Origin: a virus
Taxonomy: Duplodnaviria; Heunggongvirae; Uroviricota; Caudoviricetes
Virus record (IMG/VR): IMGVR_UViG_2695420793_000012
DNA: 3,444 nt
Reading direction: 5' to 3' (one strand)
Under the pieces are notes generated by a model. The model ran no database searches. It worked only from the letters and a program-made list of their open reading frames with translations, and had not been told where the DNA came from. The stretch's first letter is position 1; each line of letters opens with the position of its first letter. This document shows positions 1 through 3,444 of this stretch, piece by piece. Made by a program: the position numbers and the translations under genes.

Positions 1-393
1 ATCGTCTGCGCGGAAATGGACGAACAGTGGGGATACGTCGGGGCTAAATCGCGCCAGCGCTGGCTGTTTTACGCGTATGACAGGCTCCGGAAGACGGTTG
101 TTGCGCACGTATTCGGTGAACGCACTATGGCGACGCTGGGGCGTCTTATGAGCCTGCTGTCACCCTTTGACGTGGTGATATGGATGACGGATGGCTGGCC
201 GCTGTATGAATCCCGCCTGAAGGGAAAGCTGCACGTAATCAGCAAGCGATATACGCAGCGAATTGAGCGGCATAACCTGAATCTGAGGCAGCACCTGGCA
301 CGGCTGGGACGGAAGTCGCTGTCGTTTTCAAAATCGGTGGAGCTGCATGACAAAGTCATCGGGCATTATCTGAACATAAAACACTATCAATAA
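1..393 (+). CDS. insB: IS1 transposase InsB, C-terminal part (5'-partial at window edge)
   Basis: Frame 1 open from base 1 ([31 protein letters not shown]...[15 protein letters not shown]), stop TAA 391-393; matches recalled InsB C-terminal sequence. Confidence 0.95.
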
Positions 394-408
394 GTTGGAG
401 TCATTACC
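386..408. repeat. IS1 right terminal inverted repeat (about 23 bp)
   Basis: Reverse complement of 386-408 reads GGTAATGACTCCAACTTATTGAT, the canonical IS1 end. Confidence 0.9.
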
Positions 409-784
409 TATTTTTCTTACCTGATTCGGGTAATGTTGACCATTCACTGACCACATTATTAATGCCGGTATTCCGCCCGCTCTGAATAAAAATCCCACGC
501 TTTACCAGAACACTTTTTGCAGCAGAACACTTGTGCGGCAATATCCCGGTTAATTCGGAAAGTTGCTCGTTGCTAACCCAATCCAGTTTTTTATTAAAGC
601 CATATGTTTTGCGCATGACAGCCAGAAAGACCAGAAGCTGGTGCTGTGTTAATCCGGCCAGCATCACAGCTTCCAGCAACTCATTTGCAATGCGCGTATA
701 ACCATCATCGAGATCTGCCACGCGCGGCTCCTTTTGTGCCGCATCCGGCACTGGAAAATTGAATATCTCAGCAGTGTTTGCCAT
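404..784 (-). pseudogene. Lambda O-like replication initiator, N-terminal DNA-binding domain only (126 aa); C-terminal part removed by IS1, stop codon supplied by the IS1 end
   Basis: ATG at 784-782 with GGAGG 4 nt upstream; MANTAEIFNF...RVADLDDGYTRIANELLEA...LLVFLAVMRKTYGFNKK...SEWSTLPESGKKNR resembles recalled lambda O N-terminus (MTNTAKILNF...NVADLDDGYARL...LRKTYGWNK). Frame runs into the IS1 IR, stop TAA at 406-404. The listed ORF start at 874 would overlap the upstream gene. Confidence 0.8.
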
Positions 785-870
785 AATTCCTCCCGCAATG
801 AGTGTGTTACGATTTGCACCTGAAAGTCGGTTCTGTTCCAGCAGACCGGCTTTCGCCATTTCTGAACCTG

Positions 871-1410
871 TCATATCGCCCCCAGCATGGTAGTAACCAT
901 CGCCATCAATGGACCAGCCAGATCTGGGTCCACACGAAACATCGACACAATACCTTCACTAATTTCCTTCAGTTTCTGGTGGCGTGGTGCGTTGAGAATG
1001 ACAGCCTGTTTTGCCTCACTGAGTTCCTTTTCCATTTCAGCCAACCTAGCCATGAAGCTATCCTGCTCAACCAGGTAACCGCGATATTCCAGCGGTAGTA
1101 CCGCCAGAATTGCCGGGGTCAGTTCACGCACGTTATTTCGGTATTTTTCAGAATCGAATTTGTTATCGAGGAAGCGGAACAGCTTCTGGCGTGCACGGCT
1201 GACATCATCAGGGAAATCGATGGTGCCGCCGCCCTGCTCCCGATACTCATTCACAATGAGTGTGGCAACGACATCCTGATTATCTACAGCCGACCAGGCG
1301 CGGACGGCATCACGGATTTTTTCGTGGCCTGGCACCTGTTTTGTTTGAGAACGATTTATCACCGCAGTCGGGCTAAATCCGCTAGTCTGTTGGTATGTAA
1401 GTGGTTGCAT
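871..1410 (-). CDS. ydaT: YdaT-family protein (proposed functional analog of phage CII; historically annotated as putative toxin), 179 aa
   Basis: Strong RBS AAGGAG 6 nt upstream of ATG (1410-1408). Motifs NEYREQGGG and LTPAILAVLPLEYRGYL match recalled E. coli YdaT (EEYLRQGGG, LIPAILAILPRELRHRL). Sits in the cII position between cro-like and O-like genes. Confidence 0.75.
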   Translation of the reverse strand: MQPLTYQQTSGFSPTAVINRSQTKQVPGHEKIRDAVRAWSAVDNQDVVATLIVNEYREQGGGTIDFPDDVSRARQKLFRFLDNKFDSEKYRNNVRELTPAILAVLPLEYRGYLVEQDSFMARLAEMEKELSEAKQAVILNAPRHQKLKEISEGIVSMFRVDPDLAGPLMAMVTTMLGAI

Positions 1411-1429
1411 AATTGACTCCTTTAGTTTG

Positions 1430-1449
1430 AATTGACTGTTAAGTTGATT
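1430..1449 (+). promoter_or_regulatory. Direct repeats TTGACT-N6-TTGATT (AATTGACT also at 1411-1418); candidate binding site for the CII-like activator / PRE-like establishment promoter reading toward the repressor gene
   Basis: Seen in sequence: ttgactgttaagttgatt; position (cro/cII-analog junction) and direct-repeat-N6 geometry parallel lambda CII sites TTGC-N6-TTGC at PRE. Function is inferred. Confidence 0.25.
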
Positions 1450-1454
1450 GCTTA

Positions 1455-1467
1455 TTGTTAAAGAGCG
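1455..1467 (-). promoter_or_regulatory. boxA-like element (nutR-like position), CGCTCTTTAACAA on minus strand
   Basis: Reverse complement of 1455-1467 is CGCTCTTTAACAA, matching the boxA consensus CGCTCTT(T)A and the rrn boxA core GCTCTTTAACAA; lies 12 nt downstream of the cro-like stop. No convincing boxB hairpin follows. Confidence 0.4.
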
Positions 1468-1479
1468 TGAAATGGAAAT

Positions 1480-1710
1480 TTAAGCTGCGTTCTTTTCGGT
1501 GTGTGGAAACAACTTCGGAAGATCCGGGCGAATCTGGTATGCCTTCACTACTCCACCAGTAGCCGTAACAATGCTGCCGACATGTTCAGGGGATACCTTT
1601 GCTTTGTTGTGAAGCCACTTATAGACGGCCTGCTGTGAAACTTCGCAAGCAGCGCCCAGTTTCTTTTGTGAACCAACGATATTGATCGCTGTTTTGATAG
1701 CTGGGTTCAT
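1480..1710 (-). CDS. ydaS: Cro-like HTH regulator, YdaS family, 76 aa
   Basis: ATG 1710-1708 with GGAGG 5 nt upstream; divergent from the repressor gene; pattern IVGSQKKLGAACEVSQQAVYKW...ATGGVV...IRPDL resembles recalled YdaS (VVGGQSAMARLLGVS...W...ATRGEV...LRPDI). Confidence 0.75.
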   Translation of the reverse strand: MNPAIKTAINIVGSQKKLGAACEVSQQAVYKWLHNKAKVSPEHVGSIVTATGGVVKAYQIRPDLPKLFPHTEKNAA

Positions 1711-1737
1711 AACAACCTCCGTGGTTAATTTGAATCA

Positions 1738-1766
1738 AGATTAAAACTATGGTTGTTTTTAGTCAA
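1738..1766 (-). promoter_or_regulatory. PR-like sigma70 promoter for the cro-like operon (-35 TTGACT at 1766-1761, 17-bp spacer, -10 TAATCT at 1743-1738)
   Basis: Minus strand reads GGTTGTTGACTAAAAACAACCATAGTTTTAATCTTG; -35 overlaps the operator palindrome; near-identical to the module downstream of the repressor gene (2790-2823). Confidence 0.5.
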
Positions 1767-1773
1767 CAACCAT
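1749..1773. promoter_or_regulatory. Operator palindrome ATGGTTGTT-N7-AACAACCAT (OR-like); further half-sites AACAAC(C) at 1711-1717 and GGTTGT at 1798-1803
   Basis: Perfect 9-bp inverted-repeat arms seen directly in sequence, centred between the divergent cro-like and repressor genes and overlapping the PR -35. Confidence 0.55.
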
Positions 1774-1779
1774 TTTCGT

Positions 1780-1808
1780 TTGATGGAATAAAACCTTGGT
1801 TGTACATT
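1780..1808 (+). promoter_or_regulatory. PRM-like promoter candidate for the repressor gene (-35 TTGATG 1780-1785, 17-bp spacer, -10 TACATT 1803-1808), giving a leaderless or near-leaderless transcript
   Basis: Hexamers are weak matches; no usable Shine-Dalgarno before ATG 1815, as for lambda cI from PRM. Confidence 0.3.
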
Positions 1809-1814
1809 TGGACT

Positions 1815-2504
1815 ATGAAAACAACACTCTCAGAAAGACTTAAAGAAGCCAGATTAGCGCGAGGCCTTACACAAAAGGCGCTTGGGGATTTGGTCGGGGT
1901 TAGCCAGGCTGCTATTCAGAAAATCGAAACAGGGAAAGCTAATCAAACAACTAAAATCGTGGAGATCGCGAACGCTTTGGGTGTGCGCGCAGAATGGTTA
2001 TCTTCTGGCGTTGGAAATATGTCAGACAGTACAGTGCAACCAATACAATCAACTGTCAGCCATTCCAAATACTTCAAGATTGACGTTCTTGATATAGAAG
2101 TCAGTGCTGGGCCGGGAGTCATCAACCGTGAGTTTGTAGAAGTTCTACGCTCGGTTGAGTACTCGTTTGACGATGCTCGTCACATGTTCGATGGTAGGAA
2201 GGCGGAAAATATCCGCATCATTAACGTGCGTGGTGACAGCATGTCAGGAACGATCGAACCAGGTGATCTGCTGTTCGTTGATATCACAGTTAAATCTTTC
2301 GACGGTGATGGTATCTATGCGTTTCTGTACGACGACACAGCCCATGTAAAGCGCCTGCAAATGATGAAGGATAAGCTGCTGGTCATCTCTGATAACAAAA
2401 GCTACTCACCGTGGGACCCGATCGAGAAAGACGAGATGAACCGGGTGTTCATCTTCGGTAAGGTTATTGGGAGCATGCCGCAGACATATAGGAAGCATGG
2501 GTAG
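1815..2504 (+). CDS. cI-like phage repressor: N-terminal XRE-type HTH plus C-terminal LexA/S24 autopeptidase domain (229 aa from ATG 1815)
   Basis: HTH LTQKALGDLVGVSQAAIQKIE; putative Ala-Gly cleavage site in DIEVSAGPG; catalytic Ser in VRGDSMSGTIEPGDLLFVD and Lys in AHVKRL. The upstream in-frame ATG at 1749 lies inside the operator palindrome, so 1815 is preferred. Confidence 0.9.
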   Translation: MKTTLSERLKEARLARGLTQKALGDLVGVSQAAIQKIETGKANQTTKIVEIANALGVRAEWLSSGVGNMSDSTVQPIQSTVSHSKYFKIDVLDIEVSAGPGVINREFVEVLRSVEYSFDDARHMFDGRKAENIRIINVRGDSMSGTIEPGDLLFVDITVKSFDGDGIYAFLYDDTAHVKRLQMMKDKLLVISDNKSYSPWDPIEKDEMNRVFIFGKVIGSMPQTYRKHG

Positions 2505-2625
2505 TACCAATTAAAAATTATCAACTGGGCATTGTGCTCATTCAGTAAAGAACTAATTCCTATCTTTGCTCTAGGTAATAATATTAAACCACCGCAATAA
2601 TATCTTTACCTAACGGCGTAAGAAT

Positions 2626-2652
2626 CCCGGTCACCGTGCCGGGTTTTCTTTT
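2626..2652 (+). terminator. Intrinsic terminator downstream of the repressor gene
   Basis: GC stem CCCGG(2626-2630)/CCGGG(2639-2643) with short loop, followed by TTTTCTTTT (2644-2652). Confidence 0.6.
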
Positions 2653-2779
2653 GCCCTCCCCTCATCACACACACCGTTAAAAAAACCACCATAACCTCGC
2701 TTCAGTTATCGCTATGCGATTCAAGTCACAAAATAAATCCATCCTAAATACAACCAGTTATATCTAAAACAACCAATAA

Positions 2780-2823
2780 AACAACTTTTGTTGTTGACGA
2801 TAAAACAACTATAGTTTTAAATA
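2780..2823 (+). promoter_or_regulatory. PL/OL-like promoter-operator module: palindromes AACAAC-TTTT-GTTGTT (2780-2795) and GTTGTT-N8-AACAAC (2790-2809); -35 TTGACG 2794-2799; -10 TTAAAT/TAAATA 2817-2823
   Basis: GTTGTTGACGATAAAACAACTATAGTTTTAAATAAG is near-identical to the PR module on the opposite strand at 1733-1768; downstream of repressor gene and terminator, oriented away from the repressor as lambda PL is. Confidence 0.5.
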
Positions 2824-3254
2824 AGTTCATCGCAACAACACAACGATACGGCAACTACCTGATTCACCGTTGCGATGACCGCTTAGATCCGCAGTTTGAA
2901 TTTCAGCAGGCTTCGGGGAGTGCGAGGGGTGAAACGGACGCGTGAACGTCGGTGTGACCAGCTGAAATTAACTCAACATTTCATACCTTAGTCGCTTCAA
3001 CGAGGCGGCTTAGTTATGACAACCGGCGGCCATCCACCGCCTGAATACGCGCAGAAGTCTCTATATGTTCAGCAGCCCAGCTTACGGGCAGGAGTTTTTA
3101 TGGTTCATCAACATTATGGAACGCAGACCGTTAATCGAGGTGCGGTCATGCCAGGAATGCTGGTCAAACACAAAGATGGTACCTGGACTGCATCAGCTAA
3201 TTTACGCGGACGGCTTTATCTGCATCGCGGCATCGAGCGCACTTATACCCGTGA

Positions 3255-3444
3255 TTTGCTCGTGGAAGTTTTTCTCGACGGACGCGGTACTCCGTTACGA
3301 AGCGAGGCTGGGTATTTCCCGGCCTTTCTGTTATCCGAAAGATGCGCATCGACAGCAAGACATCATGGCTATCAGCTTGTCGTCGTGCAGGAATTGAAGA
3401 TTTCCGTTTCCATGACCTCAGACACACCTGGGCAAGCTGGCTGA
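3255..3444 (+). pseudogene. Tyrosine recombinase (phage integrase) 3' fragment, 5'-truncated and apparently frameshifted; continues past window end
   Basis: Frame 0 from 3255 reads ...[46 protein letters not shown], containing the integrase box II motif HDLRHT. In-frame stops at 3198 and 3252; no room for an N-terminal domain; possible continuation in frame 2 ([12 protein letters not shown], 3278-3313) implies a frameshift near 3305. Confidence 0.7.

Follow-up and report, generated by a model that had tools for sequence, protein, structure and literature searches.

In lambdoid phages and prophages, a left control region (PL/OL) that mirrors the right one (PR/OR) is textbook design, and this arrangement has been shown experimentally for prophage CP-933P. 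There, the -35 and -10 elements of PL are identical to those of PR, the operators are similar to those of OR, regulation has been shown, and the repressor mRNA is leaderless (PMC8630535). The operators of phage 434 are 14 bp long (ACAATNNNNATTGT); the five outer bases on each side are contacted and the central four are free (PMC1636474). In the Rac prophage RacR is essential, and a repressor over ydaS/ydaT-family genes and kil is kept in a prophage that is otherwise defective (PMC5700373). RdgA orthologues, too, are reported to be essential in Pectobacterium (PMC13566846).

The locus that we analysed, a stretch of 3,444 nt (the window, by which we mean the whole of this DNA), is a lambdoid prophage remnant at the argU site of E. 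coli. In E. coli strain 165 the remnant lies between ompT/IS1 and the tRNA-Arg gene argU, the site occupied by DLP12 in K-12. Like CP-933P (PaaR2/YdaS/YdaT, with promoters PR933P, PRM933P and PL933P), it is a cryptic E. coli lambdoid prophage with a Cro-like YdaS and a CII-like YdaT. The two differ in that the repressor of CP-933P is PaaR2 and its 18-bp operator consensus, GTTTAGTAA, was footprinted experimentally, whereas the window is known from its sequence. Rac of E. coli K-12 differs as well, since RacR has no S24 domain and uses other operators.

We observed that positions 409-3289 match the isolated phage PhiR34_1, whose host on record is K-12 MG1655, over 2881 nt with two mismatches (2578 and 2588) and no gaps (99.93% identity). 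Gene order is the same in both, reading O'-ydaT(cII-like)-cro <- OR -> cI-terminator-OL/PL-kil. Because only these two mismatches separate the two, the cro-OR-cI-OL/PL module has kept an intact sequence; the prophage itself is dead, and its immunity region matches that of a live phage base for base but for the two exceptions. This bears out the original prediction of an intact switch in an otherwise dead prophage. After 3289 one loss begins inside kil and spares only the ~45 bases at the end of exo, and a further one reaches the integrase 3' end. As a result of the deletion, kil lacks its final five codons and its reading frame continues into integrase-derived sequence. Of 5426 complete E. coli genomes, 1514 contain the cro-OR-cI segment and only 20 the IS1-truncated form of the remnant; six deposited phage genomes share this CI DNA-binding domain. 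The features of the window are collected in Table 1. The counterpart of the gene at 1480-1710 is annotated as Cro in phages, and the terminator behind cI, a 6-bp stem with five G-C pairs followed by TTTTCTTTT, is kept in phage IdasGreatGrand.

Table 1 Features of the window, including predicted promoters and candidate operators.
Feature	Position	Strand	Description
IS1 3' end	1-408		Window start
Phage O replication gene, truncated	404-874	minus	
YdaT-family gene at the CII position	871-1410	minus	
cro-like gene, 76 aa, YdaS/Cro family	1480-1710	minus	First in PR operon; ORF list; Pfam YdaS_toxin 4e-17, P22_Cro 8e-5
Possible fourth operator-like site ACAACCTCCGTGGT	1712-1725		Over cro Shine-Dalgarno (CCTCC), abuts cro start codon; one mismatch to AMAACNNNNGTTKT
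PR (predicted)	1738-1766	minus	-35 TTGACT (1766-1761), 17-bp spacer, -10 TAATCT (1743-1738); read from sequence
OR1 (candidate) AAAACTATGGTTGT (ACAACCATAGTTTT in PR direction)	1743-1756		In PR spacer, touches -10; perfect match
OR2 (candidate) ACAACCATTTTCGT	1766-1779		Abuts PR -35 and PRM -35; two mismatches
PRM (predicted)	1780-1808	plus	-35 TTGATG (1780-1785), 17-bp spacer, -10 TACATT (1803-1808); read from sequence
OR3 (candidate) AAAACCTTGGTTGT	1790-1803		Overlaps PRM spacer and -10; perfect match
cI repressor gene, 229 aa	1815-2504	plus	HTH + S24
Intrinsic terminator (predicted)	2626-2650	plus	Closes cI transcript, upstream of OL; terminator scan
Unpaired same-strand half-sites	2750-2774	plus	ACAACC at 2750, AAAACAACC at 2766; upstream of OL2
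OL2 (candidate) ACAACTTTTGTTGT	2781-2794		Perfect dyad; final base overlaps PL -35
PL (predicted)	2794-2823	plus	-35 TTGACG (2794-2799); -10 TAAATA (2818-2823, 18-bp spacer) or TTAAAT (2817-2822, 17-bp spacer)
OL1 (candidate) ACAACTATAGTTTT	2805-2818		In PL spacer, overlaps -10; perfect match
PL leader, ~187 nt	2829-3015	plus	No N gene, no boxA
kil	3016-3289	plus	First PL-operon gene; annotated Kil in IdasGreatGrand; PhiR34_1 colinearity stops at 3289
Integrase 3' end	Right end of window, after kil		

The immunity region combines divergent cI and cro genes separated by a 104-bp gap, a repressor with HTH and S24 domains, repeated dyads over PR and PRM, and a second set of dyads beyond cI. We therefore favour, with a probability of roughly 80%, a lambdoid switch in which 2780-2823 represents OL/PL and 1738-1808 represents OR with PR and PRM, and in which CI dimers would sit on 14-bp dyads. 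The CI protein is 100% identical to the cI product of phage PhiR26_1 and matches the Pfam families HTH_3 (5e-13) and Peptidase_S24 (1e-18). The presence of Ala98-Gly99, Ser142 and Lys179 makes RecA-stimulated self-cleavage plausible. Residues 5-67 of CI align without gaps to residues 2-64 of the 434 repressor (6e-10), and both Gln17 and Gln28 of the 434 protein are conserved, as CI Gln20 and Gln31. Gln28 of 434 helix 3 reads base pair 1. The C-terminal domains are unrelated in detail, and helix 3 itself (SQAAIQK in CI versus TQQSIEQ in 434) differs at five of seven positions.

The operators are most likely 14-bp dyads of the 434 style, A(A/C)AAC-N4-GTT(G/T)T. Searched as AMAACNNNNGTTKT, this pattern has only four perfect matches in the window, namely OR1, OR3, OL2 and OL1; with up to two mismatches allowed there are 14 matches against 6.85 expected, a number reached in none of 200 shuffles. 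The remaining site, OR2, has a strong left half but a degenerate right one (TTCGT), and the sequence alone does not fix its register. The distance from OR1 to OR2 is 23 bp and that from OR2 to OR3 is 24 bp; the positions are conserved across genera, and OL2 and OL1 are likewise 24 bp apart. A spacing of 23-24 bp resembles that of lambda. We found no enrichment in the window for the YdaT-type site TTGATT-N6-AATCAA (5 matches versus 2.6 expected).

Compared with 434, whose operators read ACAA-N6-TTGT over 14 bp, the putative CI motif is of equal length and symmetry, with its half-sites oriented alike; its outer bases are conserved and its central four vary, and bases 1, 3 and 4 (A.AA) are those of the 434 ACAA. 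The divergent PR and PRM and the position of PL downstream of cI are also shared. In contrast, the CI half-site is A(C/A)AAC, in which base 5 is C and base 2 either C or A, where 434 has ACAA(G/T); the gaps between operators are 9-10 bp here (23-24 bp centre to centre), and there are two clear OL sites compared to three in 434. The motif does not fit the 434 consensus ACAA(G/T)-N4-(A/C)TTGT. Since both the operator and helix 3 differ from those of 434, these data suggest another specificity, outside the 434 immunity group.

A strict consensus promoter scan missed PR, PRM and PL because their -10 hexamers score only 3-4 of 6, and we infer all three promoters from the sequence together with its conservation. 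At the positions of PR, the Klebsiella and Providencia relatives carry TTGACT/TATTCT and TTGATT/TATTAT, and TTGNNN and TANNNT are retained at the positions of PRM in other genera (TAAATT, TATCTT, TAGATT). The -10 element of PL is non-canonical in both registers; at 2818-2823 relatives have TATAAT (L117), TATACT (L113) or TATATT (L105), and base 2823 is variable among E. coli copies. The start of PRM is predicted at or next to the cI ATG (1815), so that PRM would yield a leaderless cI mRNA, as in lambda. The centre of OR2 lies ~42 bp upstream of this predicted start. Lambda CI activates PRM from a site centred at about the same distance, ~42 bp upstream of the start.

In the proposed switch, OR1 and OR2, 23 bp apart, would together shut PR, with OR2 standing beside the PRM -35, and OR3 over PRM may serve negative autoregulation or Cro. 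On the left, OL1 would fill the spacer and -10 of PL while OL2 abuts the -35, so that two dimers could shut the promoter. We infer binding, cooperativity, activation, transcription starts and SOS induction, and a literature search returned no binding, footprint or transcription-start data for this repressor, nor anything on this specificity, the six phages carrying the CI domain or the operator strings. The likeness to lambda extends to the tripartite OR (a site in the PR spacer, a site beside both -35 elements and a site over PRM), to a repressor that by sequence is of the S24 self-cleaving type, and to OL1 and OL2 mirroring OR1 and OR2. Lambda differs in its operators, which are 17 bp long and of another sequence, in its HTH family, and at the cII position, which is taken here by a YdaT-family protein. 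The lambda-like layout of the original prediction was thus well founded, although "two-operator" undercounts the sites, with three (perhaps four) at OR and two at OL. Its placement of a PL/OL counterpart beyond the repressor gene also agrees with the position found here, in the orientation of cI, after the terminator and, in intact phages, leading into kil-gam-bet-exo.

Parts of the locus do not follow known schemes as closely. The possible fourth site has counterparts elsewhere: of 40 loci compared across genera (see below), 21 carry a site with 0-1 mismatch at this position, -94 to -106 relative to the cI ATG. The match at 1712-1725 could instead stem from ribosome-binding-site constraint. 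No OL3 was found: only two OL dyads are present in 38 of the 40 loci, and further upstream there are solely unpaired half-sites on the same strand. These forward half-sites upstream of OL2 occur at 3.05 per 70 nt in the 38 loci, compared to a background of 0.25 and to 0.26 on the other strand. Neither these half-sites nor the match over the cro Shine-Dalgarno sequence fits a plain 434 or lambda scheme.

The sequence behind PL is another difference. Lambda has N and nut after PL, whereas the window has neither an N gene nor a boxA: no N-like gene lies between PL and kil, and boxA (GCTCTTTAACA) is absent from 2829-3015, while many relatives in other genera carry it. Rfam gave no match in the window at E <= 1, and the leader folds no better than its shuffles (z-score 0.18). 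About 60 nt of the leader form an almost invariant core; folding of the leader alignment gave one compensated pair of 53, with variation too low for covariation. The put antiterminator of HK022 is a ~70-nt RNA with two stem-loops that lies directly behind PL. Neither side of HK022 (putL, putR) aligned significantly to the leader by BLAST or local alignment, and the likeness is confined to a short stretch (TCGGGGAGTGCGAGGGGT versus TCGGGAGCGCGGCGGGT). It is unlikely, but a real possibility, that the switch departs from the textbook at several points, with an operator over the cro ribosome-binding site, unpaired half-sites replacing OL3, and the core of a leader without N or boxA acting in cis as an antiterminator or regulatory RNA.

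We also compared the two control regions with each other. The reverse complement of 1741-1770 (GTTGTTGACTA-AAAACAACCATAGTTTTAA) and the plus strand of 2790-2820 (GTTGTTGACGATAAAACAACTATAGTTTTAA) align over 30 bases with 28 identities and a single 1-base gap (minus 1770-1741 versus plus 2790-2820), and the likeness ends past ...TTTTAA. The local alignment scores 45, compared to a mean of 21.9 (sd 2.3, maximum 33) for 300 dinucleotide shuffles, and a repeat finder independently picked the shared core (I4, 19 nt, 95% complementary). The likeness reported by the original prediction is therefore real, but its count of ~30 of 33 positions was generous, and of its coordinates (about 1733-1768 and 2790-2823), at which the sequences are present, the first were some two bases off. 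Identities between the modules fall on the inner half of O2, TTGAC, the halves of O1 and the start of the -10, and the differences on the spacer (TA-A versus GATA) and N4 (CATA versus TATA). PL/OL resembles PR/OR because both regions have a TTGAC -35 and the same pair of operators, arranged in the same order. We do not follow the description of the module as duplicated, since the identities lie almost all on half-sites, -35 and -10 while unconstrained positions differ; as judged from these alignments, the likeness is one of common design under common constraints and not evidence of recent duplication. Both modules are kept in related loci (OR, n = 82; OL, n = 78; 80 of these are IMG/VR contigs), and 38 of 40 loci from other genera also have the left/right design.

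The window contains two copies of the repeat GTTGTT-N7/8-AACAAC (1752-1770 and 2790-2809) and no others, where 0 would be expected; as originally described, the repeat encloses TTGAC in both copies. It could be taken as one long operator per promoter (in its 20-bp form, GTTGTTGACGATAAAACAAC), with the -35 inside and bound by one repressor dimer. The inverted repeat is indeed exact and confined to these two places in the window, and at OR its arms extend to 9 bp (ATGGTTGTT/AACAACCAT). We nevertheless consider this reading quite improbable. Its spacing changes from N7 to N8 between the copies, and likewise in other genera, its centre consists of the -35 plus variable bases, and its half-site orientation is opposite to that of the homologous 434 repressor. 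It also leaves unaccounted for the outer halves of OL2 and OL1 as well as OR3, which is the best conserved site (perfect in 35 of 40 loci). What stays constant from genus to genus is ACAAC-N4-GTTGT, whereas both N4 and the -35 spacer change. The long repeat therefore bridges two neighbouring operators: it consists of the inner half of the first, the spacer with the -35, and the inner half of the second. This explains why TTGAC lies "inside", why the repeat is silent on OR3, and why the two copies differ in spacing (N7 versus N8), because the 1-base indel falls between operators and each operator retains its N4. The operator could thus be read from the sequence as far as the half-site letters ACAAC/GTTGT are concerned, but not as the dyad GTTGTT-N7/8-AACAAC.

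Conservation of the 14-bp dyads was followed in a wider set of loci. With the N-terminal domain alone as query we retrieved a Klebsiella phage, a Providencia phage and 44 chromosomal loci from one-genome-per-species data. The footprint set comprised 40 loci including the window, from many Enterobacterales genera, with the recognition helix (S/T)QA(A/S)IQK (SQAAIQK in the window); many of the 40 are related by descent, so that counts are not independent events. Of the 40 loci, 35 have a perfect site at the OR3 position (-25 to -27 from the cI ATG); the information there is close to 2 bits in the half-sites and to 0 in N4. At the OR1 position (-72/-73), a position count gives a site in 24 of the 40 loci; a search from -68 to -76 gives 22 loci with a perfect site and 27 with at most one mismatch (n = 40). 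At the OR2 position (~-49/-50) the left half is conserved and the right weak, with the near-consensus AACACTTTAGTTGT in four loci (L114, L115, L120 and L128). Downstream of cI, 38 of the 40 loci contain exactly one site pair. Its two members are 24 bp apart in 37 of these loci, and the sequence between them is TTGAC in 33 and TTGAT or TTGGC in the other five. OL1 is perfect in 37 of 38 loci; OL2 was found in 38 of 40, and its N4 is free to vary. Overall, the information profile of the 40 loci is high at the 5+5 outer bases and low at N4 and the flanks. Half-site conservation alone does not tell whether CI, Cro or both proteins read the sites.

Eight control loci with a different CI helix had no such site within 130 nt upstream of cI. 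Three loci (L003-L005) encode CIs that are 82%, 75% and 72% identical, but the likeness is confined to the C-terminal domain and their operators are unrelated; for this reason they were used only as a control. In all 80 IMG/VR loci the DNA-binding domain is essentially identical, which makes them suitable for population variation and not for deep footprinting. Among the 82 OR and 78 OL copies, recurrent substitutions fall between the sites (1785-1787, 1811-1813, 2775-2777, 2800-2801 and 2823-2826), and the rare changes read inside the 14-mers are at N4 or at the G/T position.

The chromosomal loci include those of Pectobacterium RdgA, which has the same recognition helix, GVSQAAIQKIE, and 72-75% identity over residues 1-69. 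These loci carry an OR3-type site at -25 and an OL2-TTGAC-OL1 module before rdgB; the P. atrosepticum 'regulator of pectin lyase production' is a member of the cluster, and a Mor-family gene lies downstream. Since these loci are rdgA-rdgB, the RdgA circuit appears, from sequence, to use the same operator module. It differs in being a chromosomal, domesticated two-gene circuit for pectin lyase and carotovoricin, with a different C-terminal domain and no cro on the left.

These loci also bear on whether Cro (YdaS family) or a different phage protein is the chief reader of the sites, with CI recognising another target. Cro and CI share operators in lambdoid switches, so conservation cannot separate them, and in CP-933P the footprints of YdaS and the repressor overlap (PMC8630535). 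However, the motif tracks the CI helix even where cro is not the left neighbour, the Pectobacterium rdgA loci retain OR3 and the OL pair, and the motif geometry suits the 434-type HTH of CI. We regard such a division of roles as very unlikely.

The same alignments speak against lambda-sized dyads of 19 bp, TAAAAC-N7-GTTTTA, which can be drawn at 1742-1760, 1765-1783, 1789-1807, 2777-2795 and 2801-2819. Such dyads have the identical 23/24-bp periodicity, and no stretch is better conserved between left and right than the OR1/OL1 19-mers (I4). In other genera, Klebsiella and Providencia among them, the outer bases nevertheless vary (GTACAT, GTAAAT, GTATCT) around a constant inner GTTGT, and the outermost T (2777, 2801) varies even within E. 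coli copies, which makes these dyads extremely unlikely as operators. Finally, the chance that the likeness is a by-product of A+T-rich promoter DNA or hairpin terminators without repressor sites is close to negligible: both regions are A+T rich and a terminator scan flags 1749-1773 on both strands, but the alignment score lies ~10 sd above shuffles, the stems have only three G-C pairs, and the half-sites are conserved at fixed distances from cI and TTGAC across many genera, tracking the repressor helix.

With the 14-bp dyads as the preferred reading, what appears to be new in this well-known design is an apparently uncharacterised, 434-like operator specificity. It comes with a testable operator definition, ACAAC-N4-GTTGT, and five putative sites at exact coordinates. 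This immunity type is common in E. coli, and its recognition helix and operator module link it to RdgA/rdgB of Pectobacterium. The retained repressor and operators could give the host of the dead prophage immunity to homoimmune phages. By analogy with RacR and RdgA, cI may also be kept for silencing kil and the ydaS/ydaT-family genes.

We compared the repressor gene and its surroundings in the window with related loci and found that the repressor is a mosaic (relative loci L003-L005, L086, L087, L097, L112 and L114). Among these loci, the window-type DNA-binding domain is found with C-terminal domains of at least three kinds that are unrelated to one another. In the reverse arrangement, other phages join the window's C-terminal domain to a different DNA-binding domain with an AQPTIWRL helix, and repressors of this kind have different operators, of the ATACGC/GCGTAT type. 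The gap between the repressor gene cI and the terminator and left operators (OL) is a cargo slot, spanning 2505-2625 in the window and 5097-6600 in the relative locus L002. Deposited phages carry two-gene inserts here, annotated as GevT/GevA, HipD/HipA and RexA/RexB-like, and the distance between the right operators and OL ranges from 921 to 3115 nt across 78 related loci, almost all of them IMG/VR contigs. The window holds the empty form of the gap, as does the isolated phage PhiR34_1.

The position of an OL3 dyad (2750-2774) contains A(A/C)AACC half-sites instead, which are unpaired and lie on one strand only, 5' of OL2. Across 38 loci, half-sites on this strand 5' of OL2 occur at 3.05 per 70 nt, compared to a background of 0.25 and to 0.26 on the opposite strand. 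Farther 5' there is a conserved stretch resembling AAAAATAAAT. Separately, a single IMG/VR relative carries an exact 24-bp deletion with the ATAAAACAACT direct repeats of OL2 and OL1 as endpoints. In this relative the -35 of PL, the predicted left promoter, is lost and OL2 and OL1 are fused.

In the PL leader of the window, we found neither an N gene nor a boxA; outside this genus, by contrast, GCTCTTTAACA is present at the leader position in many of the relatives. The leader core (~2915-2975) is nearly unchanged across 28 sequence variants. Rfam gave no match for the leader, its fold was no better than those of shuffles, and HK022 putL shares only a short likeness with it.

Features of the PL leader and the cro-cII side of the window
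Feature	Position	Remarks
PL leader	2829-3015	~187 nt ahead of kil
Annotated 31-aa ORF	2896-2991	TTG start; within PL leader
Operator-like 14-mer no. 4, ACAACCTCCGTGGT	1712-1725	overlaps cro Shine-Dalgarno complement (CCTCC); adjoins cro start codon
cro position	1480-1710	YdaS-family protein (Pfam 'toxin' name)
cII position	871-1410	YdaT-family protein (Pfam 'toxin' name)

The 14-mer at the cro start could be a post-promoter operator, or it could simply reflect ribosome-binding-site context. The equivalent position holds a site with 0-1 mismatch in 21 of 40 loci in other genera, and a perfect one in nine, for example in Providencia (L087), Morganella (L109-L111), Xenorhabdus (L112) and Arsenophonus (L117). 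For the published YdaT site, TTGATT-N6-AATCAA, the window showed no enrichment: a loose search gave 5 matches, with 2.6 expected.

Phage colinearity ends at 3289, within kil, which lacks its last 5 codons; the kil reading frame runs on into out-of-frame integrase sequence through to 3444. Past 3289 (junction 3289-3340), 45 nt from the 3' end of exo remain, followed by the 3' end of integrase. At the other side, the O gene is cut by IS1 at ~408 (junction 404-408). Among 5426 complete E. coli genomes, the IS1/O' junction is present in 20 and the kil/int junction in 26.

In Pectobacterium (L090-L100), the repressor of the rdgA-rdgB DNA-damage circuit has the same recognition helix as that of the window, and rdgA has an OR3-type site at -25. 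An OL2-TTGAC-OL1 module as in the window lies immediately 5' of the Mor-family gene rdgB; counted from the start of the repressor, this is ~1050-1450 nt downstream. The rdgA-rdgB circuit of Pectobacterium looks like a domesticated fragment of the window's immunity type.
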